A stretch of 64,000 bases of DNA from Chiloscyllium plagiosum (taxonomy: Eukaryota): positions 105,044,300 through 105,108,299 of the forward strand of contig NC_057718.1 of the NCBI RefSeq assembly GCF_004010195.1, in the 5' to 3' direction. The translations under genes were made by a program, and so were the position numbers. Of this stretch, positions 1 to 60,862 are shown in pieces; within the stretch, counting starts at the first letter, position 1; the number at the start of each line of letters is the position of its first letter. The notes below the pieces were generated by a model. That model worked only from the letters and a program-made list of their open reading frames with translations. It was not told the DNA's origin and did not search any database.

Positions 1-3000
1 CCCTGTGATCTCCCTGTGATCCAGCTGTGATCCCCCTGTGATCCCCCTGTGATTCCCCCGTGATCTCCCCGTGATCTCCCTGTGATCCCCCCGTGATCTC
101 CCCGTGATCTCCCTGTGATCCCCCCGTGATCCCCCCGTGATCCCCCAGTGATCCCCCCGTGATCCCCCTGTGATCCCCCTGTGATCTGAAAATGTGTTGC
201 TGGAAAAGCGCAGCAGGTCAGGCAGCATCCAGGGAACAGGAGAATCTAAGTTTCGGGCATAAGCCCTTCTTCAGGAATCCCCCTGTGATCCCCCTGTGAT
301 CCCCATGTGATCCCCCTGTGATCCCCTTGTGATCCCGCTGTGATCCCCCATGATCTCCCGTGATCTCCCTGTGATCCCGCTGTGATCCACCTGTGATCCC
401 CCTGTGATCTCCCTGTGATCCATCTGTGATCCCCCTGTGATCTCCCTGTGATCTCCCTGTGATCCCCCTGTGATCCCCCGTGATCCCCCTGTGATCCCCC
501 TGTGATCCAGCTGTGATCCCCCTGTGATCTCCCTGTGATCCCCCGTGATCCCTCTATGATCTCCCTGTGATCTCCCTGTGATCCAGCTGTGATCCCCCTG
601 TGATCTCCCTGTGATCCAGCTGTGATCCCCCTGTGATCCCCCTGTGATCCCTCTGAGATCTCCCTGTGATCTCCCTGTGATCCAGCTGTGAACCACCTGT
701 GATCCCCCTGTGATCTCCCTGTGATCCCCCTGTGATCCCCCTGTGATCTCCCTGTGATCCCCCTGTGATCTCCCTGTGAAACCCCCTGTGATCCAGCTGT
801 GATTCCCCCTGTGATCTCTCTGTGATCTCCCTGTGATCTCCCTGTGATCCAGCTGTGATCCCCATGTGATCCCGGTGTGATCTCCCTGTGATCCCCCTGT
901 GATCCCCCTGTGATCCCCCCGAGATCCCCCCGTGATCCCCCGTGATCCCGCCTTGATCCCCCCGTGATCGCCCCGTGATCCCCCTGTGATCCCCCTGTGA
1001 TCCCCCCGTGATCCCTCTGTGATCCCCTGTGATCCCCCTATGATCCCCCTGTGATCTCCCTGTGATCCCTCTGTGATCCCTCTGTGATCCCTCTGTGATC
1101 CCCCTGTGATCTCCCTGTGATCCCTCTGTGATCCCTCTGTGATCTCCTTGTGATCCCCCTGTGATCCCCCTGTGATCTCCCTGTGATCTCCCCATGAACC
1201 CCCGTGATCCCTCTGTGATCCCCCTGTGATCCCCCGTGATCCCCCAGTGATCTCCCTGTGATCCCCCTGTGATCCCCCTGTGATCCCCCGTAGATCTCCC
1301 TGTGATCCAGCTGTGAACCACCTGTGATCCCCCTGTGATCTCCCTGTGATCCCTCTGTGATCCCTCTGTGACCCCCCTGTGATCACCCGTCACTGAACCC
1401 CCTGTGATCTGCCTGTGATCTCCCTGTGATCCAGCTGTGATCCTGCTGTGATCCCCCTTTGATCCCTCTGTGATCCCTCTGTGACCCCCCTGTGATCACC
1501 CGTCACTGAACCCCCTGTGATCTCCTTGTGATCTCCCTGTGATCCAGCTGTGATCCAGCTGTGATCCTGCTGTGATCTCCCTGTGATCCCCCTGTGATCC
1601 CTCTGTGATCCCTCTGTGATCTCCCTGTGATCTCCCTGTGATCCCCCTGTGATCCCCCTGTGATCCAGCTGTGACCCCCCTGTGATCCCCCTGTGATCTC
1701 CCTGTGATCCCCATGTGATCCCGGTGTGGACCCCACTGTGATCTCCCTGTGATCCCCCTGTGATCCCTCTGTGATCCCCCTGTGATCCCTCTGTGATCTC
1801 CCTGTGATCCCCCGTGATCCCTCTGTGATCTCCCTGTGATCTCCCTGTGATCCCTCTGTGATCCCCCTGTGATCCACCTATGATCCCTCTGTGATCTCCC
1901 TGTGATCCCTCTGTGATCTCCCTGTGATCCCCCATGATCCCTCTGTGATCTCCCTGTGATCTCCCTGTGATCCCCCTGTGATCCCCCTGTGATCCAGCTG
2001 TGACCCTCCTGTGATCCCCCTGTGATCTCCCTGTGATCCCTCTGTGATCTCCCTGTGATCCCCCATGATCCCTCTGTGATCTCCCTGTGATCTCCCTGTG
2101 ATCCCTCTATGATCCCTCTGTGATCCCCCTGTGATCCCTCTGTGATCTCCCTGTGATCCCCCGTGATCCCTCTGTGATCTCCCTGTGATCTCCCTGTGAT
2201 CCCTCTGTGATCCCTCTGTGATCCCCCTGTGATCCAGCTGTGATCCCTCTGTGATCCCCCTGTGATCCCCCTGTGATCCCCCTGTGATCTCCCTGTGATC
2301 CCCATGTGATCCCGGTGTGGTCCCCCTGTGATCCCCCTGTGATCCCCCTGTGATCCCGGTGTGATCCCCCTGTGATCTCCCTGTGATCCCGCTGTGACCT
2401 CCCTGTGATCCCCATGCGATCCCGGTGTGATCCCTCTGTGATCCCCCGTGATCCCCCTGTGAACCCCCTGTGATCTTCCTGTGATCCCCCTGTGATCTCC
2501 CTGTGATCCCGGTGTGATCCCTCTGTGATCCCCTGTGATCCCCATGTGATCCCCCCGTGATCGCCATGTGATCCCCCTGTGATCCCCCGTGATCCCCCCG
2601 TGATCCCCCCGTGGTCCCCCTGTGATCCCCCTGTGATCCCCCTGTGACCCTCCTGTGATCCCCCTGTGATCTCCCTGTGATCCCCATGTGTGATCTCCGT
2701 GATCCCCCTGTGACCCCCCCGTGACCCCCTGTGATCCCCCCGTGATCCCCTGTGATCCCCCTGTGATCTGCCTGTGATCCCCATGTGATCCCTCTGTGAT
2801 CCCCCTGTGATCCCCCTGTGATCCCTCTGTGATCCCCCTGTGATCACCCCATGATCCCCTTGTGAACCCTCTGTGATCCCCTGTGATCCCCCTGTGATCC
2901 CCTGTGATCCCCCTGTGATCCCCCGTGATCCCCTGTGATCCCCCTGTGATCCCCTTGTGATCCCCCTGCGATCCCCGTGTGATCCCCCTGTGATCCCCCT

Positions 3001-3465
3001 GTGATCTCCCTGTGATCTCCCTGTGATCTCCCTGTGATTTCCCTGTGATCCCCCTGTGATCCCCCTGTGTTCCCCTGTGTTCCCCTGTGATCCCCCCGTG
3101 ATCCCCTTGTGATCCCCCTGTGATCCCCTTGTGATCCCCTTGTGATCTCCCTGTGATCTCCCTGTGATCTTCCTGTGATCTCCCTGTGATCTCCCTGTGA
3201 TCTCCCTGTGATCTCCCTGTGATTTCCCTGTGATCCCCCTGTGATCCCCATATGATCTCCCTGTGATCTCCTTGTGATCTCCCTGTGATCCCCATGTGAT
3301 CCCCCTGTGATCTCCCTGTGATCCCCCTGTGATCTCCCTGTGATCTCCCTGTGATCCCCCTGGTGATCCCCCTGGTGATCCCCCTTGTGATTCCCCCCCG
3401 TGATCCCACCGTGATCCCCCCGTGATACCCCCGTGATCCCCCTGTGATCACCTGTGATCTCCCTG
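1..3465. repeat. Tandem satellite of 10-11 bp units (CCCTGTGATC[C/T]), intronic, runs off the window start
   Basis: Hundreds of variant TGTGATC-containing units read directly; interrupted only at ~187-277. Confidence 0.97.
187..277 (-). mobile_element. Penelope-like terminal-repeat fragment (family A) inserted in the satellite
   Basis: Matches the termini of the GIY-YIG-bearing element at 14181-15452; minus strand reads CTGAAGA-AGGGC-TTAT-GCCC-GAAAC. Confidence 0.85.
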
Positions 3466-3558
3466 TCTCCACTTCTTTGGGTAATGCCCCTTTTCTGTTT
3501 TGGCTAAAATACAATGTCAAACCTCAGGTTTCACCCGGTCGGAATGTTTCCAGACAAT

Positions 3559-3685
3559 AAAAACCAAGAGGTGTATATGCTGGAAATCAGAAACAAAACC
3601 AGAAAGTGCTGGAAAAGCTCGGTGGGTCTGGCAGCATCTGTGGAGAGAAAGCAGAGTTAACATTTCGGGACCAGTGTCCCTTTTT
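3559..3685 (-). mobile_element. Short interspersed element, Penelope-like family C (degenerate)
   Basis: Shares GCTGGAAAA..GGTCTGGCAGCATCTGTGGAGAGAAAGCAGAGTTAA..TTTCGGG with copies at 12926, 26910, 34375 and 48682. Confidence 0.7.
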
Positions 3686-4899: not shown

Positions 4900-6160
4900 C
4901 TCACAAACTTGATTGAGTTTTTTTAAAGAAGTAACAAAGAGGATTGATGAGGGCAGGGCGGTAGATGTGATCTATATGGACTTCAGTAAGGCGTTTGACA
5001 AGGTTCCCCATGGGAGACTGATTAGCAAGGTTAGATCTCACGGAATACAGGGAGAATAGCCATTTGGATACAGAACTGGCTCAAAGGTAGAAGCCAGAGG
5101 GGGTGGTGGAGGGTTGTTTTTCAGACTGGAGGCCTGTGACCAGTGGAGTGCCACAAGGATCGGTGCAGGGTCCTCTACTTTTTGTCATTTACATAAATGA
5201 TTTGGATGCGAGCATAAGAGGTACAGTTAGTAAGTTTGCAGATGACATCAAAGTTGGAGGTGAAGTTGACAGCGAAGAGAGTTACCTCAGATTACAACAG
5301 GATCTGGACCAGATGGGCCAATGGGCTGAGAAGTGGCAGATGGAGTTTAATTTGGATAAATGCGAGGTGCTGCATTTGGGTAAGCAAATCTTAGCAGGAC
5401 TTATACACTTAATGGTGAGGTCCTAGGGAGTGTTGCTGAACAAAGAGATCTTGGAGAGCAGGTTCAAAGCTCCTTGAAAGTGGAGTCGCAGGTCGATAGG
5501 ATAGTGAAGGCGGCATTTGGTATGCTTTCGTTTATTGGTCAGAGTATTGAGTACAGGAGTTGGGAGGTCATGTTGTGGCTGTACAGGACATTGGTTAGGC
5601 CACTGTTGGAATATTGCGTGCAATTCTGGTCTCCTTCCTATCAGAAAGATGTTGTGAAACTTGAAAAGGTTCAGAAAAGGTTTACAAGGATGTTGCCAGG
5701 GGTGGAGGATTTGAACTATAGGGAGAGGCTGAACAGGCTGGGGCTGTTTTCCCTGGAGCATCGGAGGCTGAGGGGTGACTTATAGAGGTTTACAAAATTA
5801 TGAGGGGCATGGATAGGGTAAACAGACAAAGTCTTTTCCCTGGGTTGGGGGAGTCCAGAACTAGAGGGCATAGGTTTAGGGTGAGAGGGGAAAGATATAA
5901 AAGAGACTTAAGGGGCAACTTTTTCACGCAGAGGGTGGTACGTGTATGGCGTGAGCTGCCAGAGGATGTGGTGGAGGCTGGTACTATTGAAACATTTAAG
6001 AGGCAGTTGGATGGGTATATGAATAGGAAGGGTTTGGAGGGATATGGGCCAGGTGCTGGCAGGTGGGACTCGATTGGGTTGGGATATCTGGTCGGCATGG
6101 ACAGGTTGGACCGAAGGGTCTGTTTCCATGCTGTACATCTCTATGACTCTATGACTCTGT
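4900..6160 (+). mobile_element. 5'-truncated CR1 LINE (HER1-like, family A), reverse transcriptase 3' half
   Basis: GVPQGSV.GPLLF, KFADD, WQMEFN..KCEVLH and LEYCVQFWSP motifs in frameshifted ORFs; CTATGACT repeat tail. Confidence 0.95.
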
Positions 6161-6369
6161 AGAATGGTTGAAGCAGAGACAACACTAACATTAACCTCTT
6201 CAGAACCATTACCTTCAACAACATTTACAGATCCCATTGTGTTTAAATAATCCGGATTTACGGTTTGGGAAAATCATGAAAACAACTCTGTCTTTTCCCA
6301 ATCTTTTCCTTGGGTTTCCTTTGACACCAGTTAACCCAGTGGCTGTATACAGGAACATACTGTGGAGAT

Positions 6370-6500
6370 GAAGTCACATGACATCAGTTTATAGTCCAAC
6401 AGGTTTATGTGAGATCACAAGCGTTCACAAGTCAGTGCTCTGAAAGCTTGTGATTTCACGTAAACCCTTTGGACTATAACCTGGTGTCATGTGACTTACA
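6370..6500. mobile_element. Fold-back (inverted) Penelope-like family B element
   Basis: AAGTCACATGAC..TATAGTCCAA..ATCACAAGC is mirrored by GCTTGTGAT..TTGGACTATA..GTCATGTGACTT; related to the 22536 and 49250 copies. Confidence 0.8.
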
Positions 6501-6689
6501 ACTTTGTGTATAGGAAAATATGAGGCAGAATTCCTGACATAGATAAAATCAGATACAAATATTAGAGTTCTAAGTTTTAAAGAAGGTGATGTCAATACAT
6601 TGGATGTTGTGTGTGAAAGTTTGAGAACATGACAAGATAACCTTAAAACCAGCCAGTCTGAGGGCTGAACTGGACATTGTATGATTGTG

Positions 6690-6785
6690 AGAGTCTAGAT
6701 TAGAGTGGTGCTGGAAAAGCACAGCAGGTCAAGCAGCATCAGAGGAGCAGGAAAATCAACGTTACGGGCAAAAGCCCTTCATCAG
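6690..6785 (-). mobile_element. Penelope-like family A fragment
   Basis: Family A sequence; flanked by GATTGTG at 6683-6689 and 6786-6792; hammerhead GAAA box mutated to GTAA. Confidence 0.85.
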
Positions 6786-6935
6786 GATTGTGTGTAACTG
6801 TGTGTGTATCATGAAGTAAAATTGTGTGTATTATTCCACATATGATCATATAATTTTAACAAAACTCGGATCAATGTTGCTTTTGTGAGTGAATTTTGTT
6901 TGTAGTTTCCTTATTTGTTGTGTTTTTTTATTCAG

Positions 6936-7304: not shown

Positions 7305-8047
7305 GGCTGTACAGGACGTTGGTTAGGCCACTTTTGGAATACAGAGTCAAAAGGTGTGGTACTGGAAAAGCACAGCAGGTTCCTGATAAAAGGTTTATGC
7401 CTGAAATGTCAACTCTTCTGCTCCTCGGATGCTGCCTGAACTGTTGTGCTTTGCCAGGGCCACATTTTTAACTCTGATCTCCAGTATCTGCAGTCCTTAC
7501 TTTCTCCCACTTTTGGAATACAGCATTCAATCCTGGTCTCCTTGCTAGAGAAAAGATGTTGTAAAACTTAAAAGGGTTAAGAAAAGATTTACAAGGATGT
7601 TGCCAGGTTGGAGGGTTTGAGCTACAGGGAGAGGCTGAATAGGCCTGGGCTGTTTTCCCTGGAGTGTCAGAGGCTGAGGGGTGACTTTATAGAGGTTTAT
7701 ACAATCATGAGTGGCATAAATAGACAAGGTCTTTTCACTGGGGTAGGGGAGACCAGAACTAGAGGACATAGGTTTAAGATGAGAGGGGAAAGGTATGAAA
7801 GGGACCCAAGGGGCAACCTTTTCACGCAGAGGGTGGTATGTGTATGGAATGAGCTGCCAGAGGAAGTGGTGAAGGCTAGTACAGTTACAGCATTTAAGAG
7901 ACATCTGGATGGGTACATGAGTAGGAAGGGTTTGGAGGGATATGGGCCAGGTGCTGGCAAATGGGATTAGATTAGGTTGGGATATCTGGTCAGTGTGGAC
8001 AAGTTGGACCGAAGGGTCTGTTTCCATGCTGTACATCTCTATGACTG
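7305..8047 (+). mobile_element. CR1 LINE 3' fragment interrupted by a Penelope-like insertion
   Basis: Same 3' ORF2 and tail as 4900-6160. Confidence 0.93.
7345..7506. mobile_element. Fold-back Penelope-like family A insertion with 17-bp TSD
   Basis: CCACTTTTGGAATACAG at 7328-7344 and 7507-7523; inverted family A termini inside. Confidence 0.9.
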
Positions 8048-9654: not shown

Positions 9655-12058
9655 AGATAGAGTGAGGGTGAGGAATCAGAGAGAGAGAGAGAAAGAAAGA
9701 GAGAGAGGCGATGATCGAGTGAGGGTGAGGAATTCGAGTGAGAGAGAGAGGCGATGATAGAGTGAGGGTGAGGAATCAGTGAGAGAGAGGCGATGATAGA
9801 GTGAGGGTGAGGAATCAGTGAGAGAGAGGCGATGATAGAGTGAGGGTGAGGAATCAGTGAGAGAGAGGCGATGATAGAGTGAGGGTGAGGAATCAGTGAG
9901 AGAGAGGCGATGATAGAGTGAGGGTGAGGAATCAGTGAGAGAGAGGCGATGATAGAGTGAGGGTGAGGAATCAGTGAGAGAGAGGCGATGATAGAGTGAG
10001 GGTGAGGAATCAGTGAGAGAGAGGCGATGATAGAGTGAGGGTGAGGAATCAGTGAGAGAGAGGCGATGATAGAGTGAGGGTGAGGAATCAGTGAGAGAGA
10101 GGCGATGATAGAGTGAGGGTGAGGAATCAGTGAGAGAGAGGCGATGATAGAGTGAGGGTGAGGAATCAGTGAGAGAGAGGCGATGATAGAGTGAGGGTGA
10201 GGAATCAGTGAGAGAGAGGCGATGATAGAGTGAGGGTGAGGAATCAGTGAGAGAGAGGCGATGATAGAGTGAGGGTGAGGAATCAGTGAGAGAGAGGCGA
10301 TGATAGAGTGAGGGTGAGGAATCAGTGAGAGAGAGGCGATGATAGAGTGAGGGTGAGGAATCAGTGAGAGAGAGGCGATGATAGAGTGAGGGTGAGGAAT
10401 CAGTGAGAGAGAGGCGATGATAGAGTGAGGGTGAGGAATCAGTGAGAGAGAGGCGATGATAGAGTGAGGGTGAGGAATCAGTGAGAGAGAGGCGATGATA
10501 GAGTGAGGGTGAGGAATCAGTGAGAGAGAGGCGATGATAGAGTGAGGGTGAGGAATCAGTGAGAGAGAGGCGATGATAGAGTGAGGGTGAGGAATCAGTG
10601 AGAGAGAGGCGATGATAGAGTGAGGGTGAGGAATCAGTGAGAGAGAGGCGATGATAGAGTGAGGGTGAGGAATCAGTGAGAGAGAGGCGATGATAGAGTG
10701 AGGGTGAGGAATCAGTGAGAGAGAGGCGATGATAGAGTGAGGGTGAGGAATCAGTGAGAGAGAGGCGATGATAGAGTGAGGGTGAGGAATCAGTGAGAGA
10801 GAGGCGATGATAGAGTGAGGGTGAGGAATCAGTGAGAGAGAGGCGATGATAGAGTGAGGGTGAGGAATCAGTGAGAGAGAGGCGATGATAGAGTGAGGGT
10901 GAGGAATCAGTGAGAGAGAGGCGATGATAGAGTGAGGGTGAGGAATCAGTGAGAGAGAGGCGATGATAGAGTGAGGGTGAGGAATCAGTGAGAGAGAGGC
11001 GATGATAGAGTGAGGGTGAGGAATCAGTGAGAGAGAGGCGATGATAGAGTGAGGGTGAGGAATCAGTGAGAGAGAGGCGATGATAGAGTGAGGGTGAGGA
11101 ATCAGTGAGAGAGAGGCGATGATAGAGTGAGGGTGAGGAATCAGTGAGAGAGAGGCGATGATAGAGTGAGGGTGAGGAATCAGTGAGAGAGAGGCGATGA
11201 TAGAGTGAGGGTGAGGAATCAGTGAGAGAGAGGCGATGATAGAGTGAGGGTGAGGAATCAGTGAGAGAGAGGCGATGATAGAGTGAGGGTGAGGAATCAG
11301 TGAGAGAGAGGCGATGATAGAGTGAGGGTGAGGAATCAGTGAGAGAGAGGCGATGATAGAGTGAGGGTGAGGAATCAGTGAGAGAGAGGCGATGATAGAG
11401 TGAGGGTGAGGAATCAGTGAGAGAGAGGCGATGATAGAGTGAGGGTGAGGAATCAGTGAGAGAGAGGCGATGATAGAGTGAGGGTGAGGAATCAGTGAGA
11501 GAGAGGCGATGATAGAGTGAGGGTGAGGAATCAGTGAGAGAGAGGCGATGATAGAGTGAGGGTGAGGAATCAGAGAGAGAGAGGCGATGATAGAGTGAGG
11601 GTGAGGAATCAGTGAGAGAGAGGCGATGATAGAGTGAGGGTGAGGAATCAGTGAGAGAGAGGCGATGATAGAGTGAGGGTGAGGAATCAGTGAGAGAGAG
11701 GCGATGATAGAGTGAGGGTGAGGAATCAGTGAGAGAGAGGCGATGATAGAGTGAGGGTGAGGAATCAGTGAGAGAGAGGCGATGATAGAGTGAGGGTGAG
11801 GAATCAGTGAGAGAGAGGCGATGATAGAGTGAGGGTGAGGAATCAGTGAGAGAGAGGCGATGATAGAGTGAGGGTGAGGAATCAGTGAGAGAGAGGCGAT
11901 GATAGAGTGAGGGTGAGGAATCAGTGAGAGAGAGGCGATGATAGAGTGAGGGTGAGGAATCAGTGAGAGAGAGGCGATGATAGAGTGAGGGTGAGGAATC
12001 AGAGAGAGAGAGGCGATGATAGAGTGAGGGTGAGGAATCAGTGAGAGAGAGAGATGCG
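9655..12058. repeat. 39-bp minisatellite, ~60 nearly identical copies
   Basis: Unit GATAGAGTGAGGGTGAGGAATCAGTGAGAGAGAGGCGAT; the line pattern recurs every 780 bp (20 x 39). Confidence 0.97.
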
Positions 12059-12925
12059 ATGAAGCTGCTGCTTACTCTGGCGAATGCAGGAGGTCACTGA
12101 CTGGGACTCGGCCTTCCCTCAGGCAGCTGTGCTGACCTGGGCCTGGCTGGACAAGGTGTTGTGTTGGGGCCTCCTCTGCTGGTCCTGGGGGGAAGGGGAG
12201 AGCCCTGTTTAGCAGCTGCCTGTCCAGCAGGATCTCCGGGAGCCTGCCCCTAAAGCCGGGCACCTATCTCCACCCATCTACCATGACTGGGGCAAATATC
12301 AGGTTGGTGTGGGGTAGCTCTGACTGACAGTGCTAGCCCCAGGAACACTTTGGGCTTTTAAAGATGGTGCTGGCTCCAGGGATACTGGCTGTTTGACAAG
12401 GTTCAGGTGAGTGATAAGTTGTTCCGGGGAGACCATGTGGTAAAGTGAGGATAGAATCGGACATGAGGGACATCACTGGGCCGGGGCAGGGAGTTAATGA
12501 GGCACTATCTGTAAGAGACAGTGAGAACTGACTCAGTCACAGCGAGACCCCCACCAAGAATCTCAACATAACTCACACTTAGCAAAAGCACATAAGGATC
12601 TATTGAGAGAAGCTGAGTGAGGGCTGTCAATTCTCCTCCAGCAGTACTTACCAGTGAGCACAGACAGTCCGGGTGAACAACCCTCGCAGTTATTGGATCC
12701 TCCTGAATGGCTCTGATTCCTAATTTTGGGCTTGAAGCCACCTCCAACCGTTCCGCAGTTCTCCATAAATTTATTGCTTAACATTGAGTGAATGTAACAC
12801 TCGTAAACGGCTCTGCAAAGCCGGTTCCCTCACTGAGAAAACCTTGTTGTTTTTTGGTGCAGACTTTGCCGAGATCTGTTCTGGTTCTGGTGTGACTCAT
12901 GCTGCACACCTGCAACAGACTAGAA

Positions 12926-13066
12926 ACTAAAACAGCAAGGTGCTGGAGGAATTCAGCAGGTCTGGCAGCATCTGGGGCAAGAAAGCAGAGTTAATGTTTC
13001 GGGTCCAGTGACCCTTCCTCTGATCTGTTTCTAGTTTATAGCATCTGCAGCTCTTTGGTTTATTTT
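12926..13066 (-). mobile_element. Penelope-like family C element with partial inverted tail
   Basis: Minus strand has GGGTC-ACTG-GACCC-GAAAC; CTGA box degenerate. Confidence 0.72.
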
Positions 13067-13780: not shown

Positions 13781-13940
13781 ATTCCCAATGAAGGTTCCTT
13801 GCTTGTGATCGTAATCCTGATCTTAATGCAGGGCATCACTGGAATGGCTGTGGGGCTCATCATCTCAGCTTCATTCGATGATGAACAGTCAGCGGCCCAG
13901 GTTTCGCTGGGGATCTTCTATCCTTGTATAGTTCTGAGCG
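13781..13940 (+). CDS. ABCH-like transporter, internal exon
   Basis: ccttccacAG acceptor, GTAAGT donor; IPNEGSLLVIVILILMQGITGMAVGLIISASFDDEQSAAQVSLGIFYPCIVLS-G. Confidence 0.95.
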
Positions 13941-14180
13941 GTAAGTGAGGAGGAACAGGACAATGACCTGCATTTAAATCACTCCTTTAAAGTAAGGAAA
14001 TAAATGAAGGTGTTCCATGGAGCAATCATGAAACAGAATTTGACATTAAGTCACAAAAAAGTGATATCCGGGCAGATGCCCCACCCTTGGTCAAAGAAGT
14101 AGCTTTAGAATAGAAGCAATGCTGGGATGTGGAGAGGGACAGGACCCAAACCTGACAGCAAGGTGACTCCAACTGGGAGG

Positions 14181-15452
14181 ACCAAGATTAGAGTGGTGCT
14201 GGAAAAGCACAGCAGGTCAGGCAGCGTCTGAGGAGCAGGAAAATCGACGTTTTGGGCAAAAAGCCCTTTGTCAGGAATGAGGCTGGGAGCCTCAGGGGGT
14301 GCAGAGATATATGGGAAGGGGTGGGGCTTGGGAGAAGGTAGCTGAGAATGAGATAGGTGGATGGAGGAAGGGGTCGCAGAGGAGAGTGGAGCAGATAGGT
14401 GGGAAGGAAGATTGACAGGTGAGACAGGTCATGAGGGCGGTGCTGAGCTGGAAGGTTGGAACTGGGGTAAGGTGGGGGGGAGGGGAAATGAGAAAATTGG
14501 TGAAGCCCACATTTATGCCCTGGGGTTGAAGGGTCGCGAGGCGGAAGATGACGCGTTCTTCCTCCAGGCGACGGCGGAGGAGGCCCAGGACCTCCATGTC
14601 CTCGGCAGAGTGGGAGGGGGAGTTGAAATGTTGGACTACAGGGCGCTGTGGTTGATTGGTGCGGGTGTTCTTGGGATGTTCCCTAAAGCGCTCTGCTAGG
14701 AGGTGCCTAGTCTCCCCAATGTAGAAGAGACCGCATCGGGAGCAACGGATACAATAAATGATATTGGTGAATGTGCAAGTAAAACTTTGATGGATGTGGA
14801 AGGCTCCTTTGGGGCCTTGGATGGAGGTGAGGGAGGAGGTGTAGGCGCTGGTTTTACAGTTCCTGCGGTGGCAGGGGAAGGTGCCAGGATGGGAGGGTGG
14901 GCACCAACCAACCCCACTACCCCGTGGCTGAACATTCCAACTCCCCCTCCCACTCTGCTGAGGACATGGAGGTCCTGGGCCTCCTCCACCACCACTCCCT
15001 TACCACCCGGCGCCTGGAGGAAGAACGCCTCATCTTCCACCTCAGGAACCTTCAACCCCAGGGCATCAATGTGAACTTCACCAGTTTTCTCATTTCCCCT
15101 CCCCCCACCTTATCCCAGTTCCAACCTTCCAGCTCAGCACCGCCCTCATGAACTGTCTCACCTGTCAATCTTCCTTCCCACCTATCTGCTCCACCCTCTC
15201 CTCTGACTTATCACCTTCACCCCCACCTCCATCCACCTATTGCACTCACAGCTACCTTCTCCCCAGCCCCATCTCCCTCCCATTTATCTCTCAACCCCCG
15301 AGGCTCCCAGCCTCATTCCTGATGAAGGGGTCCAGCCCAAAATGTTGATTCTCCTGATCCTCGGATGCTGCCTGACCTGCTGTGCGTTTCCAGCACCACA
15401 CTGATCCAGTCTCTAATCTCCAGCATCTGCAATCCTCACTTTTGCCTGGGCA
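14181..15452. mobile_element. Penelope-like retroelement 3' fragment with inverted repeat and GIY-YIG endonuclease remnant
   Basis: Minus strand ~14810-14490 translates FTCTFTNIIYCIRCSRCGLFYIGETRHLLAERFREH..HFNSPSHS..LQPQGINV; ~14900-15410 is an inverted copy of ~14185-14665; TSD AACTGGGAGG at 14171-14180 and 15453-15462. Confidence 0.93.
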
Positions 15453-15494: not shown

Positions 15495-16592
15495 GGGGCT
15501 GGAGGGGGTGACAGAGATAGGGAGGGGGTGTAGGGGCTGGAGGGGGTTACACAGATAGAGAGGGGGTGTAGGGGCTGGAGGTGGTTACAGAGATAGGGAG
15601 GGGGTGTAGGGGGTTACCGAGGGAGGGAGGGGGTGTAGGGGGTTACCGAGGGAGGGAGGGGGTGTAGGGGGTTACCGAGGGAGGGAGGGGGTGTAGGGGG
15701 TTACCGAGGGAGGGAGGGGGTGTAGGGGGTTACCGAGGGAGGGAGGGGGTGTAGGGGGTTACCGAGGGAGGGAGGGGGTGTAGGGGGTTACCGAGGGAGG
15801 GAGGGGGTGTAGGGGGTTACCGAGGGAGGGAGGGGGTGTAGGGGGTTACCGAGGGAGGGAGGGGGTGTAGGGGGTTACCGAGGGAGGGAGGGGGTGTAGG
15901 GGGTTACCGAGGGAGGGAGGGGGTGTAGGGGGTTACCGAGGGAGGGAGGGGGTGTAGGGGGTTACCGAGGGAGGGAGGGGGTGTAGGGGGTTACCGAGGG
16001 AGGGAGGGGGTGTAGGGGGTTACCGAGGGAGGGAGGGGGTGTAGGGGGTTACCGAGGGAGGGAGGGGGTGTAGGGGGTTACCGAGGGAGGGAGGGGGTGT
16101 AGGGGGTTACCGAGGGAGGGAGGGGGTGTAGGGGGTTACCGAGGGAGGGAGGGGGTGTAGGGGGTTACCGAGGGAGGGAGGGGGTGTAGGGGGTTACCGA
16201 GGGAGGGAGGGGGTGTAGGGGGTTACCGAGGGAGGGAGGGGGTGTAGGGGGTTACCGAGGGAGGGAGGGGGTGTAGGGGGTTACCGAGGGAGGGAGGGGG
16301 TGTAGGGGGTTACCGAGGGAGGGAGGGGGTGTAGGGGGTTACCGAGGGAGGGAGGGGGTGTAGGGGGTTACCGAGGGAGGGAGGGGGTGTAGGGGGTTAC
16401 CGAGGGAGGGAGGGGGTGTAGGGGGTTACCGAGGGAGGGAGGGGGTGTAGGGGGTTACCGAGGGAGGGAGGGGGTGTAGGGGGGACAGGGATAGGGAGGG
16501 GGTGTAGGGGCTGGAGGAGGTTACTGAGGTAGGGAGGGGGTGTTGAGGCTGGAGGGGGTGACAGGGATAGGGAGGGGTGTAGGGGCTGGAGG
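15495..16592. repeat. G-rich minisatellite: ~30 perfect 29-bp units flanked by diverged ~38-bp units
   Basis: Unit GGGGGTGTAGGGGGTTACCGAGGGAGGGA from ~15600 to 16480. Confidence 0.96.
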
Positions 16593-17358: not shown

Positions 17359-17463
17359 GAATCATTTGGCCCCTTGAAAGTATCCCATATCCCCTGAGGT
17401 ATGTGAGTTTCATCTTGCCACAAACATACGCATCAGAGGCACTCCGAGGTGTGACTGATCGAG
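17359..17463 (+). CDS. ABCH-like transporter, penultimate exon
   Basis: tttcAG acceptor, GTaaga donor; (G)IIWPLESIPYPLRYVSFILPQTYASEALRGVTDR-G, giving the SG-x-x-WP-x-E and LP-x-T signature typical of ABCH/ABC2 permeases. Confidence 0.95.
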
Positions 17464-17593
17464 GTAAGAGACCATTTTCAACCATTTCAAAACACAACTT
17501 GCATTAATGTGAACAAATCGGTCTTCTGAAAGCTCATTTATGAATTAAATTAATGGACATAATTATTGCACAGTTGGCTGAAACAATTGAATT

Positions 17594-17729
17594 TGGATGT
17601 AGGTTTGCTCGCTGAGCTGAAAGGCTCATTTCCAGACGTTTCGTTATTTTACTAGGTAACATTTTCAGTGGACCTCAGGCGAAGCAATGCTGAAAATTCC
17701 TGCTTTCTGTTTATATGTTTGGGTTTCTT
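17594..17729 (-). mobile_element. ~140-bp element, Penelope-like family D, with decayed hammerhead
   Basis: Reverse complement of 48418-48556; TTGAATT flanks at 17587-17593 and 17730-17736. Confidence 0.82.
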
Positions 17730-20912: not shown

Positions 20913-22495
20913 CAGGGTGCTGTATATAATCTATATGGTGTGCTGTATATAATCAATGCAGGGCGCTATATATAATCAATACAGTGTGTTGTATATAATC
21001 AATACAGGGTGCTGCATATAATCAATACATTTGTTGTATATAATCAATACAGGGTGCTGTATATAATCAATACAGTGTGTTGTATATAATCAATGCAGTG
21101 TGCTGTATATAATCAATACAGTGTGTTGTATATAACCAATACAGTGTGCTGCATATAATCAATACAGTGTGTTGTATATAATCAATACAGGGTGCTGTAT
21201 ATATTCAATACAGTGTGTTGTATATAATCAATGCAGTGTGCTGTATATAATCAATACAGTGAGTTATATATAATCAATACAGGTGCTACATATAATCAAT
21301 TCAGTGTGCTGTATATAATCAATTCAGTGTGCTGTATATAGTCAATACAGTGTGTTGTATATAATCAATGCAGTGTGCTGTATATAATCAATGCAGGGCG
21401 CTATATGTAATCAATACAGTGTGCTGTATATAATCAATACAGTGTGCTGTATATAATTAATGCAGTGTGCTGTATATAATCAATACAGTGTGCTGTATAT
21501 AATCAATAAAGTGTGCTGTATATAATCAATGCAGTGTGCTATATATAATCAATACGGTGTGCTGTGTATAATCATTGCAGGGTGCTGTATATAATCAATA
21601 CAGTGTGCTGTATATAATCAATGCAGGGTGCTATATATAATCAATACAGTGTGCTGTATATAATAAATGCAGGGTGCTGTATATAATCAATTCAGTGTGC
21701 TGTATATAATCAATACAGGGTACTGTATATAATCAGTGCAGGGTACTGTATATAATCAATGCAGTTTGCTGTATATAATCAATGCAAGGTGCTGTATATA
21801 ATCAATACAGGGTGTTGTATATAATCAATGCAGTGTGTTGTATATAATCAGTACAGGGTGTTGTATATAATTGATGCAGGGTGCTGTATGTAATCAATGC
21901 AGTGTGCTGTATATAATCAATACAGGGTGCTGTATATAATCAGTACAGTGTGCTGTATATAATCAATGCAGTGCGCTTATATAATCAATACATGGTGCTG
22001 TATATAATCAATGCAGGGTGCTATATATAATCAATACAGTCTGTTGTATATAATCAATGCAGTGTGCTGTATATAATCAGTACAGGGTGCTGTATATAAT
22101 CAATACAGTGTGCTCATATCATCAGTACAGTGTGCTGTATATAATCAATGCAGTATGCTTATATAATCAGTAAAGGGTGCTGTATATAAGCAATGCAATG
22201 TGCTGTATATAATCAATACAGGGTGCTATATATAATCAGTACAGGGTGCTGTATATAAGCAATGCAATATGCTGTATATAATCAATGCAGAGTGTTGTAT
22301 TCAATCAATACAGGGTGCTGTATATAATTAATACAGTGTGTTGTACGTAATCAGTACAGGGTGCTGTATATATTCAATGCAGTGTGTTGTATATAATCAA
22401 TACAGTGTGTTGTATATAATCAATACAGGGTGCTGCATATAATCAGTATAGTGTGCTGTGCAGCAAAAATACTGTGTGCTGTATAGGATCAATAC
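20913..22495. repeat. 23-bp minisatellite, ~68 diverged copies
   Basis: Consensus CAG(T/G)GTGCTGTATATAATCAAT(A/G). Confidence 0.96.
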
Positions 22496-22535
22496 ATTTT
22501 CTGTTTAGGGTCTAAATGGTGTTCTACAGCATCAA

Positions 22536-22618
22536 AGTTAAAAATCACACAACACCAGGTTATAGTCCAACAGGTTTAATTGGAAGCACTAGCTTTCGGA
22601 GCGCTGCTCCTTCATCAG
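22536..22618 (-). mobile_element. Penelope-like family B fragment
   Basis: Near-identical to 49250-49340; CAGCATCAA at 22527-22535 and 22616-22624. Confidence 0.85.
22587..22618 (-). ncRNA. Minimal hammerhead ribozyme core (family B)
   Basis: CTGATGA-A-GGAGC-AGC-GCTCC-GAAAGCTA; palindrome AGCT; the 5' arm of stem I is lost by truncation. Confidence 0.7.
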
Positions 22619-26909: not shown

Positions 26910-27076
26910 CTGAGATAGTACTCCATAGATCTGACAGTGTCTTTGGAAAGAGAAACAATGTTAACATCTTGTGTTGAGTCTAACTAACAGTCAAACTGGA
27001 GAAACTCTGTTTCTCTCACCACAAACACTGCCAGACCTGCTGAGCTTCTCTAGCACTTTTTGTCTTTATTTCAGAT
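26910..27076. mobile_element. Degenerate fold-back family C element
   Basis: AACTCTGTTTCTCTCACCACAAACACTGCCAGACCTGCTGAG preceded by a decayed inverted arm. Confidence 0.6.
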
Positions 27077-28214
27077 CTGCCCGGTGGGATAGTGCCTACA
27101 TGCCCATGTAAATGCCATAACACTTTGTCTTTTGAAGCAAAACACAGCCCTCTAAGGCCAGTTACTGGCGTGTGTCTCTCAGCCTGCTGCACATTAGTTA
27201 CCCATTAGCAAAAAGACAGAACAATATGAACACATGGTATAGTGGATGGAGGTTGCATGTCTAGTGTGGTATAGTTCACTGGAAGAAACACATTCCACAA
27301 ACAAACTGCCTCATCTGACAGTCCCACTTCATTATTACTGTAAACAGAAGTTCATGTTTCTTTCAATAGAGCTTTCATAAACAATTCTGAAACAAATGGT
27401 TCCAGTGTTAGCTTTAGGTACGTCTGTGTAAAATAATGATGCCATAACATCTTCCTGTTACTAAGGAAACATCCTAGTAAAGTGAACTATGTTGCTAAGT
27501 AAACAGTTAATAATGCGATATCAGCACTGCTCTTGAATGCCTTTTGATTCCATTAAATTTCAGGAGATGGTTTAAGACAGCCTGGTGTTTCTATCCGAAA
27601 AGCAGAGAAAGGAATGTGTTCATTAAGCCTGTACCAGACTGCCATGTCTGGTACAGGCTTAATGTCTGTCCATTTGGAATGTCCTGAGGTAGTGGGATTT
27701 CAGTCAAGGTGGCACAGTAGAAACTGACCTCAAAAGCTACCAAACTACACTCAGCTTGGGGGCTGCTGTAGTTATTGACACAATGAGTGACAGTTCCCTC
27801 CAATCTCTCTCTGCTCGTTGAATGAGGCAGTAGCTTACAAAGTGTGAAAAGGGAAAAAAGAAATTTTATTGCTGTCCTCTAAAATATATCAGGAATTCAA
27901 AGTTAGTTTTTTAAAAAGTTATTGTTCAGATAATGGTGACACCCTCACATTTCATTTGTGTTTATCATCTACACAAAAAAAGATAAATTGTTTGGACCAA
28001 GTTGTATTTTTAACTCAAAATACTCAGTCTGATCATTCTCATCCCAATGTGCCTGACAAACTGGAAGTGATTTGAATATGACCTGTTATTTTTAAAGCAA
28101 TGTTCAGAGTGAAATTCTAGTGATGCAGTGTTAGTCAATAAATAGATTTATAAACAAATCTGTTACTGTAAAACTGATCTTTGAATAGGTTCTCACTTGT
28201 TTCAAATCTTCACC

Positions 28215-28578
28215 TATAGAATCATAGAGGCATAGAGCTGTACAGCACGGAAACAGACCCTTCGGTTCAACTTGTCCATGCCAACCAGATATCCTAAATT
28301 AATCTAGTCCCATTTGCCAGTATTTGGTCCATATCCCTCTCAACCCTTCCTACTCATATACCCATCCAGATGCATTTTAAATGTTGTCATTGTACCAGCC
28401 TCCACCACTTCCTCTGGCAGCTCATTCCATACACGCACCACCCTCTGTGTGAAAAAGTTGCCCCTTAGCTCCCTTTTATATCTTTCCCCTCTCACCTTAA
28501 CCCTATGCCCTTTCATTTTGGACCCAGGGAAAAGACCTTTTTATTCACCCTATCCATGCCTCTCATGATTTTATAAAT
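28215..28578 (-). mobile_element. CR1 family A 3' end
   Basis: Reverse complement of the 5800-6160 tail. Confidence 0.92.
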
Positions 28579-28642: not shown

Positions 28643-28878
28643 ACAGAAAAAATCAACTAGGCGAAAGTGAGGACTGCAGATGTGGGAGATTAGAGTCTGG
28701 ATCAGAGTGGCGCTGGAAAAGCACAGCAGGTTAGGCAGCACCCAGGAGCAGGAAAATCGACGTTTTGGGCAGGAGCCCTTCATTCCTGATGAAGGGCTTT
28801 TGCTCGAAACGTTGATTTTCCTTCTCCTCGGATGCTACCTGACCTGCTGTGCTTTTCCAGCACCACTCTAATCTTGAT
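28643..28878. mobile_element. Fold-back Penelope-like family A insertion
   Basis: ~85-bp inverted arms centred at ~28785; TACAAAG at 28636-28642 and 28879-28885. Confidence 0.9.
28781..28818 (+). ncRNA. Minimal hammerhead ribozyme core (family A)
   Basis: ATTC-CTGATGA(28786)-A-GGGC-TTTT-GCTC-GAAACGTT-GATT; palindrome ACGT. Confidence 0.7.
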
Positions 28879-33905: not shown

Positions 33906-34374
33906 GTGTAGCTAATAATTTCAGGCCAGGTAAAAATGCGTTGAAATCATATTTCTTAAAGAAAAACCCACAGAGTTGCAATGTGTGAAATTACTCCAAG
34001 AAACTTGCAGATTATGAAACTACTGCGGTATTGCACTTACAAAGCCTGCACCTAAAGTGATTCATAATGTCAAACTTGTATATAAAGTCAAGAATATGTT
34101 CTTGGCAGTGCTGTATTCTGCAAGTGAAGGAGTAATGTGAGTTTGACATACAACACTTGCAACAAATGACCAACCCTCGTAACCATAGTAACTTGCCAAT
34201 CCATTTGAACAATTCAAAGTGTCATATCCCAGCTATCTTGAGTACAAATTAAGATACGAAAAATAAACTGTGTTAAAATGCTGATGATTCATTTTCATGG
34301 CCCTCTGCAATAATAATGACATAATAAACATTGACAATTACAAAACGTAAATGAATCAGCTTTTCTTTTTGCAG

Positions 34375-34492
34375 GAACAAACACAGGAAGTGTTGGAGAA
34401 ACTCAGTTGGTCTGTCTGGCAACATCTGTACAGAGAGAAACAGAGTCCACTGACTCTTCATCAGACTTCCAGTATTTGCGTTCTGTTTTTAA
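34375..34492. mobile_element. Degenerate family C element
   Basis: GTTGGAGAAACTCAG..GTCTGGCAACATCTGTACAGAGAGAAACAGAGT..CTTCATCAG. Confidence 0.6.
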
Positions 34493-43400: not shown

Positions 43401-43635
43401 GCAAAGGGTGGTACGTAAATGGAATGAGCTGCCAGAGGAAGTGGTGGAGGCTGGTACAATTGCAACATTTAAAAGGCATCTGGATGGGTATATGAATAGG
43501 AAGGGTTTGGAGGGATATGGGCCGGGTGCTGGCAGTGGGACTAGATCAGTTTAGGATATCTGATCAGCATGGACGGGTTGGATCAAAGAGTTTGTTTCTG
43601 TGCTGTACAATTCTTTGACTCTATGACTGTGACTC
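40480..43635 (+). mobile_element. CR1 family A spanning nearly all of ORF2, multiply disrupted
   Basis: From endonuclease N-terminus (CIYFNARGL-like) through DFNFPNID and GVPQGSMLGPLLF/KFAD to the CTATGACT tail; many stops and frameshifts. Confidence 0.93.
40807..41108 (+). mobile_element. HE1-type V-SINE nested in CR1
   Basis: Near-identical to 30628-30934. Confidence 0.92.
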
Positions 43636-48417: not shown

Positions 48418-48556
48418 AAAAGAAACCTAAACATGTAAACAGAAAGCAGGAACGTTCAGCATTGCTTCGCATGAGGTCCACTGAAGATGTTACCTAGTAA
48501 GGTAATGAAATGTCTGGAAATGAACCGTTCAGCTCAGCGAGCAAACCTACATCCAA
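48418..48556 (+). mobile_element. ~140-bp Penelope-like family D element with 12-bp TSD
   Basis: AGCTTCTACATG at 48406-48417 and 48557-48568. Confidence 0.87.
48478..48517 (+). ncRNA. Minimal hammerhead ribozyme motif (family D)
   Basis: CCA-CTGAAGA-T-GTTACC-TAGTAA-GGTAAT-GAAATGTC-TGG; stem I CCA/TGG, 6-bp stem II, GUC site; two probable CpG decays. Confidence 0.7.
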
Positions 48557-48681
48557 AGCTTCTACATGGATTTTTTATCACTGCTGCAAGGAGGAGGCAG
48601 TGCCACAGGATATGTGTGATACAAAGGTTGTGAATCTGTATGAGAACGAGGATGGTCACAGTAATTGCAACAATTATTGAG

Positions 48682-48779
48682 GCAAAAACAGAAAATCTGG
48701 AAAAACTCAGCAGGTCTGGCAACATCTGTGGAAGGAAAGCAGAGTTAATGTTTTGGGTCACGTGACTGTTCTTCAGAAC
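48682..48779 (-). mobile_element. Family C element inserted in RTE
   Basis: Minus strand AGTT-CTGAAGA..GTCACGTGACCC-AAAACATT-AACT, a decayed hammerhead with stem I AGTT/AACT. Confidence 0.75.
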
Positions 48780-49249
48780 TCCTGTAGCACATCATGGGAG
48801 AAGTATTCCCAAGTGTTGCTCTTGCTAGACTAGATCCTGGTTGAACTTATTTACCCTGAATCCCAAGGTGTTTTCAGAACTGGTAGATTTTCAGGTGGCA
48901 TGATCACCTGTACAGCAGCTGGAAGGGAAATATGGTGAACAAATGTATCATCACACCTGTTTACAATGGGCTAAATGGACTCCTGTTCTGTCAGTCTCAA
49001 TAGTGCTCTCATAACGTGGCTTCCCATTTTGTTTGTGTAGCTGCTAGCTGTCCTGCATTTATTTCCATTGTGCCCAATTCTTTATTTCTAGAAAATATTG
49101 ATTTTTGCTTTATTTTAATAGGGAGATTTTAAGGATTGCAGTAAGTGAATCAACTTCCAGGTGGTATAGAGAAAAACTATACGGTGAAAGTGTTTGACAA
49201 AAAGTGTCTTTGACCTGAAACATGAACCATTTCTGTCTCCATGGTGTTC

Positions 49250-49342
49250 AAAGTTAAAAATCACACCACGAGGTTATAGTCCAACACGTTTATTTGGAAG
49301 CACTAGCTTTCGGAGAACTGCTCCTTCAACAGGTAGTTGTGG
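49250..49342 (-). mobile_element. Penelope-like family B fragment
   Basis: Matches 22536-22618; core reads CTGTTGA (mutated)..GGAG..CTCC-GAAAGCTA. Confidence 0.83.
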
Positions 49343-51419: not shown

Positions 51420-52253
51420 CAGATTGGAGGCCTGTGACCAGTGGAGTGCCACAAGGATTGGTGTTGGGTCCACTACTTTTCATCATTCATTTAAATAATT
51501 TGGATGCGAGCATGAGAAGTAACAGTTAGTAAGTTTACAGATGACACCAAAATTGGAGGTATAGTGGATAGTGAAGAGGGTTACCTCAGATTACAACAGG
51601 ATCTTGATCAGATGGGCCAATGGGCTGAGAAGTAGCAGATGGTATTTAATTTAGATAAATGCGAGGTGCTGCATTTTAGGAAAGCAAATCTTAGCAGGAC
51701 TTATATACTTAATGGTAAGGTCNNNNNNNNNNNNNNNNNNNNNNNNNNNNNNNNNNNNNNNNNNNNNNNNNNNNNNNNNNNNNNNNNNNNNNNNNNNNNN
51801 NNNNNNNNNNNNNNNNNNNNNNNNNNNNNNNNNNNNNNNNNNNNNNNNNNNNNNNNNNNNNNNNNNNNNNNNNNNNNNNNNNNNNNNNNNNNNNNNNNNN
51901 NNNNNNNNNNNNNNNNNNNNNNNNNNNNNNNNNNNNNNNNNNNNNNNNNNNNNNNNNNNNNNNNNNNNNNNNACTCGAGAGCATAGGTTTAGGGTGAGAG
52001 GGGAAAGATATAAAAGAGACCTAAGGGGCAACTTTTCCACGCAGAGGGTGGTGCATGTGTGGAATGGGCTGCCAGAGGAAGTGGTGGAAAATGATATGAT
52101 GGCAACATTTAAAAGGCATCTGGATGGATATATGAATAGGAAGGGTTTGGAGGGATATGGGCTGTGTGCTGGCATGTGGGACCAGATTGGGTTTGGATAT
52201 TTGGTCGGCATGGACTGAAGGGTCTGTTTCCATGCTATATATCTCTGACTCTA
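51420..52253 (+). mobile_element. CR1 family A 3' fragment, gapped
   Basis: Same sequence as 5125-6150. Confidence 0.92.
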
Positions 52254-54665: not shown

Positions 54666-54686
54666 TCACTTGCTGCTTATGCTGTT

Positions 54687-54880
54687 TAGTAGAAAGCGAG
54701 GACTGCAGATTCTGGAGATCAGAGTTGAGAGCTGGAAAAGCACAGCAGTCAGGCACATCCAAGGAGCAGGAGAATCGGCGATTCCTGATTCCTGATGAAG
54801 GGCTTATGCCCGAAACGTTGATTCTCCTGCTCCTCAGATGTTGCCTGACCTGCTGTGCTTTTCCAGCACCACTCTTGCGA
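54687..54880. mobile_element. Fold-back Penelope-like family A insertion with 14-bp TSD
   Basis: CTGCTTATGCTGTT at 54673-54686 and 54881-54894; inverted arms. Confidence 0.9.
54787..54824 (+). ncRNA. Minimal hammerhead ribozyme motif (family A), best-preserved copy
   Basis: GATTC-CTGATGA(54792)-A-GGGC-TTAT-GCCC-GAAACGTT-GATTC; stem I 4/5 pairs; predicted cut after 54819. Confidence 0.75.
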
Positions 54881-56309
54881 CTGCTTATGCTGTTGGCCAT
54901 GCAAGTAGTCCTGTTTGGTAGCTTCATCAAGTTGACACTTCATTTTCAAATATGCCTGGTGCCGCTCCTGGCATACCCTCCCACAGTCTCCATTAACCTA
55001 CTGGTCCCCTGGCTTGATGGTAACAATTGAGTAGAGGATATACTGGGCTATGAGGTTTCACAATGTGTTGGAGTACAATTCTGCTGCTGTTGATGGCCCA
55101 CAGCACCTCCTGGATGTCCAATCTGAGTTATGTCTGTTCAAATTCTGTCCCATTTAGCATGATAATAGTGCCACATAACACGTTGGAAGCTATTCTCAGT
55201 GTGAAGGCAGGACTTCATCTCCACAAGGACTGTGTGGTGGTCAAACTTGTCTCTCGATAACTCAAACAAGGATTTTAGTCTGCCTTTTCTATGGCCTATT
55301 GCCTCAATAACCAGAATTGCTACACAGCTAGTTTCTTCAACTCCATTTTAACGTTTTATAATTTAAGGTGTAACTATTTTTAACTTTCATTTAGTTTATG
55401 GTGGATTCTGACCTAAGTTTTCTTGCTGGCATTAGTGCATTGAATTTTGTAATGCTGGTTAAAAAAAATTGATTGAGATTATGGTTTGTTGTAATGTAGT
55501 CTTCTATGGTGTAACTCTCATAATCAGGTTTATACATGTCACTGTTTTCATTGTTTCTGCTCGTCTGTCACAATGCTAAATTTGTGCAAACTTTAAAATG
55601 CTACAGCCATTGAAATGTCCCGTTCCAGAAGGAAGATTATTTTTGTCTTTAGTCCCTTCACTTAAAGTGATTGGTGTGGATATTGAAGCCTGTCTAATTC
55701 TCATGCAAGTGATTTATTTTATGCTGTCTTAAATGGAACAGCATTATGGATCGAATAACCTCCTGGGAATCCATTTCAAATGAATGTTGTTTTAAGCTAA
55801 AAATGTAAATGATTGATTGTTTCTTGATTTAAGTGATTGCTAAAATCTACAAACGGACTAATTGATGTCCTTAACTCATCAGAAACTTTACAATTAAAGT
55901 GATTGTAAAGACCCTATTAAAAATACCATGTGTTGCAACAGGAAAATAGAAGCTCTACAATTTTTGAACAAAAACAGTAGGTGTGTAAGTATTGAGTAGT
56001 GCAGACTTGGAGTGATCTTTGCAGTTTGTATGTCTCATTTCAGCTTGTATAAAATCAGGGAGGTAGATTTCTTTCAATGAAATATGTGAAAATTGTGCCA
56101 TTCTGTTAACCATGTGTTCTCTAACACCAAAATATGTGGATATGTAATATAAATTAATTTTTCCTGTATTATTTCAGGTAAATTCCACAAAAAGCATTTC
56201 AAACTTTTAGCTAGTTTCAGTTGAGATCTTTTGGTTTTGTTTCCATCCTGAAACAGTTATGTTTTCCATGTTGTCAATCGTTGTTTAGCAACTTTACTCT
56301 CATATTTTG

Positions 56310-60774: not shown

Positions 60775-60862
60775 AACTGAGGGCTTCAGCATGAAATGTT
60801 GATTTTCCTGCTCCTCGGATGCTGCTTGACCTGCTGTGCTTTTCCAGCAACACACACTCAAC
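60775..60862 (+). mobile_element. Penelope-like family A fragment, hammerhead decayed
   Basis: GAAATGTTGATTTTCCTGCTCCTCGGATGCTGC..TGCTGTGCTTTTCCAGCAACAC. Confidence 0.82.

Follow-up and report, generated by a model that had tools for sequence, protein, structure and literature searches.

A 64,000-nt stretch of the 3.56-Gb Chiloscyllium plagiosum genome (positions 105,044,300-105,108,299 of NC_057718.1; hereafter the window) holds short repeats in which two conserved boxes flank a hairpin. We consider it highly probable that these motifs are minimal type-I hammerhead folds located in the pseudo-long terminal repeat (pseudo-LTR) ends of Penelope-like retrotransposons, here reduced to 5'-truncated stumps. 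A first-pass annotation of the sequence had described separate families of short elements (A to D); in all probability the repeats are instead 5'-truncated end pieces, or arms, of autonomous Penelope-like elements, the pseudo-LTR consisting of a hammerhead plus a tail. Hammerhead positions follow the standard numbering scheme, arms are anchored at C3, and the family letters E and F and all subfamily labels are our own naming.

A profile search with motif plus tail identified 21 arms in the window, ten belonging to family A, five to C, four to B and two to D. The boxes around the hairpin were located by plain scan at 54792+, 28786+, 274-, 22618- and 48481+, in the order (CTGANGA, one extra base, hairpin, GAAA) and at the places where they had first been annotated. 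A strict descriptor comprising the core, a stem II of at least 4 bp, the palindromic pair and UH at the cut site was satisfied by 3 of the 21 arms, compared with no match in 100 dinucleotide shuffles, indicating that the pattern is real; two matches were left when a stem I of at least 2 bp was added. An Rfam scan of the window returned no hammerhead family at E values up to 5. Its below-threshold MIR398 match is the family B fold-back at 6371..6514 and hence spurious.

Penelope-like genes stand behind the motifs of all four families. Family A had been tied to Penelope by an endonuclease remnant, which lies on the minus strand at 14484-14906 and was confirmed as GIY-YIG by a match to Pfam PF01541 (24.2 bits, cut-off 22.6; E = 4.3e-5); its closest database protein, from Chiloscyllium punctatum, is 76% identical. 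In each of the four families the motif is preceded, on its own strand, by GIY-YIG coding sequence. Going downstream from the gene, the first motif on that strand belongs to the matching family at 27 of 30 loci each for A and D and at 21 of 30 for B. With the C profile, which includes a sister family E, the own motif comes next in 18 of 30 loci and an A motif in 3; the remaining GIY-YIG loci have no motif in range downstream. Reverse transcriptase (RT) is encoded in the same copy in A (L273, RVT_1, 35.4 bits), in B (L278, whose 25.9 bits fall short of the 29.6 cut-off) and, with RT motifs read by eye, in C (L256, L270) and D (L207), and the D RT of L204 scores 37.6 bits; a search of PDB sequences gave no match. 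The earlier proposal that B, C and D are also Penelope-derived is borne out by this combination of upstream RT and own motif.

Many stop-free family A frames of 750-1,000 aa were recovered. At two family A loci (L413 and L412, both gapped) two motifs lie 2,980 and 3,111 nt apart around an open reading frame (ORF) start and RT, with pseudo-LTRs in direct tandem around the ORF, an arrangement looked for in family A only. The 893-aa frame at L271 (C8:30.85 Mb) has an N-terminal repeated block beside an assembly gap, which is probably an assembly artefact.

The families are less dissimilar than first described, since A and C share a 3' tail and related proteins. Their tails are ~76-89% alike in short local alignments, and identity to the A protein is ~37-62% by segment for C, 45-57% over long segments for E and ~31% for B; judged by these alignments, A and C are relatives. 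A CX2-5CxxC linker precedes GIY-YIG in A (L271, L273), B (L278, L279), C-type loci (L257 and L270, one stop inside) and E-type loci (L249, L255, L268). It was not seen in L256, L264 or L265, and the D loci L204, L207 and L036 have no zinc-finger linker. On this basis A, B and C would be Neptune-type and D Poseidon-type elements, names that rest on the linker motif and not on a tree. The order RT, CX2-5CxxC linker, GIY-YIG in A, B, C and E is that of the endonuclease-bearing (EN+) Neptune and Nematis elements, as are the 5' truncation, inverted truncated copy and optional tail (Craig et al. 2021, PMC8557442).

The position of the motif relative to the ORF also differs between these types. In family A, whose 5' end was reached from the tail side (a walk from the RT side ended at a proline-rich stretch), the ORF likely starts ~165 nt 3' of C3, outside the motif, and the tail runs on into this probable start. 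In family D, A9, the extra U and G10.1 form an AUG from which the consensus frame stays open for 35 codons. Of 30 copies found, 24 are of equal length; all 24 have stops in both other frames, and 10 have one in the open frame. This start was not joined to the D RT in the recovered copies.

Family D thus resembles the Anolis carolinensis Poseidon element PAc (Frangieh et al. 2024, PMC11167929) in lacking a zinc-finger linker, in an ORF that opens where stem II begins and contains the cut site, and in two clustered 3' ends that define a tail. In PAc both DNA strands are nicked and extended by the protein, and the tail is set by two internal sites in the RNA from which reverse transcription begins. 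The PAc hammerhead, at whose stem II the ORF starts, cuts only in the presence of the protein and is dispensable for insertion. For family D, unlike PAc, no recovered copy joins the start codon to the remainder of the ORF.

Conservation of the fold is apparent in the consensus sequences. All ten subfamily consensuses keep the CUGANGA and GAAA boxes and UH at the cut site, with H17 never G, although E has the U3-A8 form of the core and the subfamily classes D2 (3 copies) and F (8 copies) are poorly defined. The extra base after A9 is present in 36 of 36 full descriptor matches of the genome sample described below, and G10.1-C11.1 is G-C in 13 of 13 aligned copies. The first-pass claim that stem sequences vary while pairing is kept holds for stem II, which covaries between families, and also for stem I, which it did not mention: stem I stays paired as ATTC/GAAT, AGTT/AACT, AGCT/AGCT, CAC/GTG, TCCA/TGGA or GCA/TGC depending on the family, with 86.5% of cells paired and double changes in all four pairs. 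In an alignment of 13 real copies, from which family B was left out because it was misaligned by one column, 91.5% of cells are paired versus 66% in shuffles and 20-42% in slid controls, and double changes occur in 8 of 10 pairs, equalled by 17 of 500 shuffles. Among the ten subfamily consensuses, where B was treated by anchors, 89 of 100 cells are paired versus 59 when shuffled (0 of 20,000 shuffles equal this). Between families, covariation is seen in stems I and II and in the core pair 3-8. The palindrome column is CG in A, E and D and GC in B; in the old family C (n = 55) it reads CA in 20, CG in 12 and TG in 9 copies, a CpG-decay pattern.

Family E, which lies outside the window (e.g. L104:4129-4188:-, L267:2173-2232:+, L283:1622-1681:-), has the U3-A8 core in 12 of 12 copies and its own RT and GIY-YIG gene (L249, L268). 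The genome holds more families than the window shows, at least five of them covarying. A divergent D subfamily with stem I GCA/TGC (L100:2937-2996:+, L289:3161-3220:-) and a further relative of A and C with a 3-nt loop II (L086:4334-4393:+) were also observed.

These features match the minimal hammerheads of Cervera and De la Pena (2014; PMC4209133), which lack stem III, have a palindrome at 15.2-16.2, an extra base between 9 and 10.1, G10.1-C11.1 and a short stem I, and occur as several covarying families per genome, mostly as single dispersed copies and opposite-strand pairs, with ~3-kb spacing in whole elements. Their hosts are metazoan Penelope-like pseudo-LTRs, including Xena, Poseidon and Neptune of fish and elements of coelacanth and Xenopus, and the U3-A8 variant seen here in family E is known there from Schistosoma Cercyon. 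Inverted pseudo-LTRs and tails are also described in PMC3846280. Where the shark families differ from PMC4209133 is in a stem II of only 4-5 bp in A, B, C and E, and in copy number.

The very large motif population proposed from the window is upheld by exact counts and by sampling. Counted on both strands of the genome, family A has 93,494 exact motifs with any 4-nt loop (37,320 for one loop), B 3,097, C 528 and D 261, and reversed controls gave none. For sampling, 10-kb stretches were taken at fixed, round coordinates of the 23 largest contigs, 80 in all (763,706 non-N bases). They held 42 descriptor matches, of which 36 also have stem I; the corresponding numbers over five shuffles are 1 and 0. 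The sample also held 245 arms, against 0 in the reversed control, and 64 outward inverted pairs. Extrapolation (95% Poisson) yields 141,000-264,000 intact-looking motifs and 1.0-1.3 million arms, ~1.1 million as a point value, and may run high since the sample contains 25 exact A motifs where 20 are expected. PMC4209133 gives counts of several thousand (coelacanth ~4,000, X. tropicalis ~9,000), obtained with different descriptors from our 93,494. The 126,247 canonical motifs reported for the axolotl (PMC7229834), with a genome of 28.21 Gb, correspond to ~4.5 per Mb versus 26 per Mb for exact family A here, again with differing descriptors.

Copies show 5' truncation, inverted partners and an optional 30-40-nt tail. 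In each family the 3' ends gather at two or three fixed positions, the signature of a tail. Among arms reaching the motif, 5' ends fall within 12 nt of C3 in 63 of 95 for A, 24 of 47 for B and 27 of 32 for C, a rate of 0.020-0.034 per nt versus 0.000-0.012 further upstream. The 5' edge of the motif is likewise where reads and contigs from related organisms break off, although divergent untranslated regions confound both this and the count of 5' ends. Copies span the cut site with no clear peak of ends there, so the copied RNA was uncut.

By analogy with published work on the class, the element endonuclease would nick DNA, and reverse transcription would start on uncut RNA at fixed sites ~55-100 nt 3' of the cut site and stop early. 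In the parent element the motif would likely cut element RNA as a dimer or with the element protein, two motifs pairing through ACGU or AGCU to supply stem III and cutting after GUC, GUU or CUA; inserted copies are likely inert. We give an even chance to the reading that the many copies whose 5' boundary is stem I record the 5' end of the RNA itself. If it holds, cutting would remove a ~33-nt leader, in D together with the start codon, and would not release the element from an upstream transcript. The internal promoter in the pseudo-LTR of Drosophila virilis Penelope (PMC2377424) fits this reading but is no proof of it. A more far-reaching proposal is speculative and, we think, doubtful as a whole: the hammerhead would sit at the mRNA start, the approximately one million stumps would mostly be short cDNAs running back to the 5' end, and the ribozyme would be a protein-triggered off-switch that removes the capped leader (in D, the start codon) and no release device. 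Template jumps between ORF start and 3' end would keep yielding retrozyme-like tandems, and the genome would hold several-fold more motifs per Mb than any found in print.

A number of observations weigh against the interpretation as functional hammerheads of named Penelope clades copied from the RNA 5' end. The clade filing, made on the linker motif, leaves Neptune and Nematis unseparated, and the covariation shuffles ignore the relatedness of copies. The commonest A subfamilies, A-TTAT and A-TTTT, have only two contiguous stem I pairs and a U-U mismatch, and energy minimisation predicts a fold other than the hammerhead for them. Family D has no pile-up at the 5' edge (0 of 11; five end at +15), and the pile-up in the other families may partly reflect untranslated regions of subfamilies outside the references. 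There is no clear 5'-end peak at the cut site, with 4 of 351 family A arms ending at position 34 and 10 at 32-34. Nor did read ends pile up in one RNA run of a related species, a weak negative given 3'-type single-cell data of which ~2% was read; the same run contained ~2,000 family reads from both strands in poly(A) RNA, and a second raw-read run yielded no family reads. Finally, class-wide in vitro activity is low (PMC4209133), and only one of nine Xenopus retrozyme dimers cut (Li et al. 2026, bioRxiv 10.64898/2026.07.22.740005).

Several of these points would suit a different explanation, namely that the fold persists because it serves the RT-endonuclease as a protein-binding or promoter signal, with cutting marginal or vestigial. 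Every motif-spanning copy here derives from uncut RNA, stem I is weak in the commonest A subfamilies, 5' ends are not in excess at the cut site, and in Anolis Poseidon ribozyme mutants had no effect on insertion in vitro and no RNA reads end at the cut site (PMC11167929). We regard this explanation as unlikely, however, because the C3-G8 to U3-A8 change is compensated in all 12 copies of family E and H17 is never G in the ten consensuses, which suggests selection on catalysis, and because the Anolis motif does cut when the protein is present. Selection acted on the parent elements and not on the insertions, as in sampled copies the core is no better kept than the invariant tail (A, 0.962 versus 0.966; B, 0.959 versus 0.965). 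Selection on inserted copies was thus not seen for A or B; the samples for C (22) and D (7) are small.

Family A also forms tandems. The family A ORF start has 1,499 exact matches genome-wide, and the first 90 listed places gave 87 distinct copies, of which 63 have a second same-strand end piece within ~800 nt (~5 expected by chance) and 11 carry two whole motifs in direct tandem, with periods of mostly 200-500 nt. Such tandems could dimerise in cis. A fixed period of 280 nt, considered on the first 16 junctions, became a broad mode of 260-330 with 63 junctions. Direct tandems with periods of ~280 nt occur at L344/L345 (C1:38.44 Mb), L340 and L332, and the L344/L345 trimer has two units with different junctions, equal in length within 1 nt.

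These mini-tandems resemble animal non-LTR retrozymes, which are derived from pseudo-LTRs and have motifs ~200-500 nt apart (PMC7229834; Li et al. 2026), and raise the possibility that the short copies are independent non-autonomous retrozymes, or elements like short interspersed elements (SINEs), that spread as their own small (circular) RNAs. The joined end pieces (63 of 87), the whole-motif tandems (11 of 87), periods in the size range of animal retrozymes and a 5' boundary at the motif shared by many copies would all fit. They differ from retrozymes in that their junctions are heterogeneous, varying from copy to copy, and include the ORF start, and in that the motifs are minimal, not canonical. 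Moreover, copies of this kind are rare (1,499 exact ORF-start matches versus 93,494 exact motifs), longer copies are continuous into the endonuclease gene, and neither a direct pair within 1.5 kb nor a retrozyme tandem unit was found in the window. We therefore rate an independent retrozyme origin as very improbable and retain the derivation from Penelope-like ends for the window arms, which are as follows.

181..278, minus strand: family A arm with C3 at 274 and a 5' end ~5 nt before it; the boxes and stem II are preserved, whereas the palindrome has become ACTT
3578..3682, minus strand: family C arm without the first box and with GGGAC/GTCCC as a variant stem II
6371-6426 minus and 6433-6514 plus: family B-type fold-back pair with truncated cores
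6704..6789, minus strand: family A arm with C3 at 6785; GAAA changed to GTAA
7356..7504, plus strand: decayed family A arm with C3 at 7383, a long tail and its own 25-nt inverted stub (7356-7380)
12917..13026, minus strand: family C arm with C3 at 13022, which reads CAGAGGA and ACAT but keeps an intact stem II
14186..15447: long family A insertion with two outward arms (motifs 14274 minus and 15319 plus, both decayed) flanking endonuclease remnants, a typical inverted Penelope structure
14484..14906, minus strand: remnant of the GIY-YIG endonuclease, free of stops over 141 aa and opening with a decayed CX4CxxC linker
14903-15097, plus strand: second partial GIY-YIG copy
17589..17673, minus strand: family D arm with C3 at 17668; CTGAAAA (G8 mutated), stem II broken, short no-tail end
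22529..22618, minus strand: family B arm that keeps its core, a 5-bp stem II, the palindrome AGCU and the triplet CUA, beginning exactly at C3 so that the stem I 5' arm is missing
27003..27078, plus strand: old tail of C type that no longer has a motif
28664..28868: fold-back pair of family A; the plus arm, with C3 at 28786, is whole and has a single G-U pair in stem II, and the minus arm is decayed and truncated
34371..34465, minus strand: C-type arm; first box and GAGTC/GACTC hairpin present, GAAA segment deleted
48476..48575, plus strand: family D arm with C3 at 48481; stem I has 4 bp and stem II 7 bp, the cut site is GUC, the palindrome has decayed into AUGU and the extra base is the T of an ATG
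48680..48780, minus strand: family C arm with C3 at 48776; GAAA mutated (AAAA), stem II damaged
49232..49336, minus strand: family B arm, absent from the first-pass annotation, with C3 at 49332; A6 mutated (CTGTTGA)
54692..54883: family A fold-back pair; plus arm (C3 54792) the best-preserved motif in the window, with 4-bp stem II, ACGU palindrome, GUU triplet and stem I
60780..60871, plus strand: family A arm, truncated within the first box and decayed

The 21 arms include five outward-facing inverted pairs and so represent 16 insertions, or 17 if the arms at 6785 and 7383 are independent, in agreement with the ~16 first estimated. The whole minimal hammerhead is kept only at 54792 and 28786, the other arms being decayed or, at 22618, without the stem I arm; most window copies are thus decayed stumps whose cutting ability is likely gone. 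The individual motif descriptions of the first-pass annotation stand for the family B copy at 22618, for the minus-strand family A copy with ACTT (placed there at 275, found to start at 274) and for the decayed family C copies. They stand in part for the rest of A and for D: GGGC-TTAT-GCCC with ACGT is found at 54792, whereas at 28786 the loop is TTTT and the arm GCTC, and the D boxes and hairpin are present at 48481, whereas AUGU is no true palindrome and the 17668 copy has the damage listed above.

The stem II variant at 3660-3680 (minus) is a double change in one lineage relative to the family's GGGTC/GACCC. The arm at 181-278 sits inserted in an 11-mer satellite (277-3466, ~291 copies). 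Other satellites are a 39-mer at 9699-12051 (60 near-identical copies), a 29-mer at 15595-16510 (32 copies) and a 23/46-mer at 20917-22459, and long dispersed repeats, probably of the long interspersed element (LINE) type, are common to 4900-6163, 28214-28577, 31031-33369, 40570-43631 and 51420-52253.

Exons of an ABC-2 transporter gene also lie in the window (13781-13942, plus, Pfam ABC2_membrane at E 1e-4, below the cut-off; an exon-like stretch at ~17430-17520, plus), and the elements near them lie in that gene's introns on both strands. The two intact plus-strand motifs at 28786 and 54792 are in sense with the membrane exon and could in principle pair and cut the pre-mRNA; the second exon-like stretch near 17430 and the presence of family sequences from both strands in poly(A) RNA of a related species would be compatible with this. 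Since the two motifs lie 26 kb apart, the copies decay at a neutral rate and the activity of the class is low (PMC4209133), we consider such an action on the host transcript hardly credible, and the motifs are best read as remnants of Penelope-like ends.

The class and every structural trait described here have been in print since 2014, and the finding itself is ordinary. A survey by Lunse et al. from 2017 reportedly holds ~150,000 variants across genomes and may include sharks. For dimer cleavage, reviews cite Lunse et al. 2017 (PMC7761336, PMC6765202), and Li et al. (2026) report retrozymes with a mean of 363 bp in one cartilaginous fish. No description of these families from a shark was found in the literature searched, which did not extend to the supplements of Li et al., Repbase or Dfam. 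One searchable supplement file of PMC4209133 contains no shark or skate term, the whale shark paper gives Penelope one line in its available part (PMC8455134), and PMC6155905 mentions sharks only for the name.

What this genome adds is scale and a test bed, with at least five covarying families, two Penelope lineages and stop-free family A ORFs of 750-1,000 aa. The pile-up at the 5' edge and the mini-tandems bear on element priming and on the origin of retrozymes, and the in vivo role of Penelope hammerheads is easier to test in this genome.

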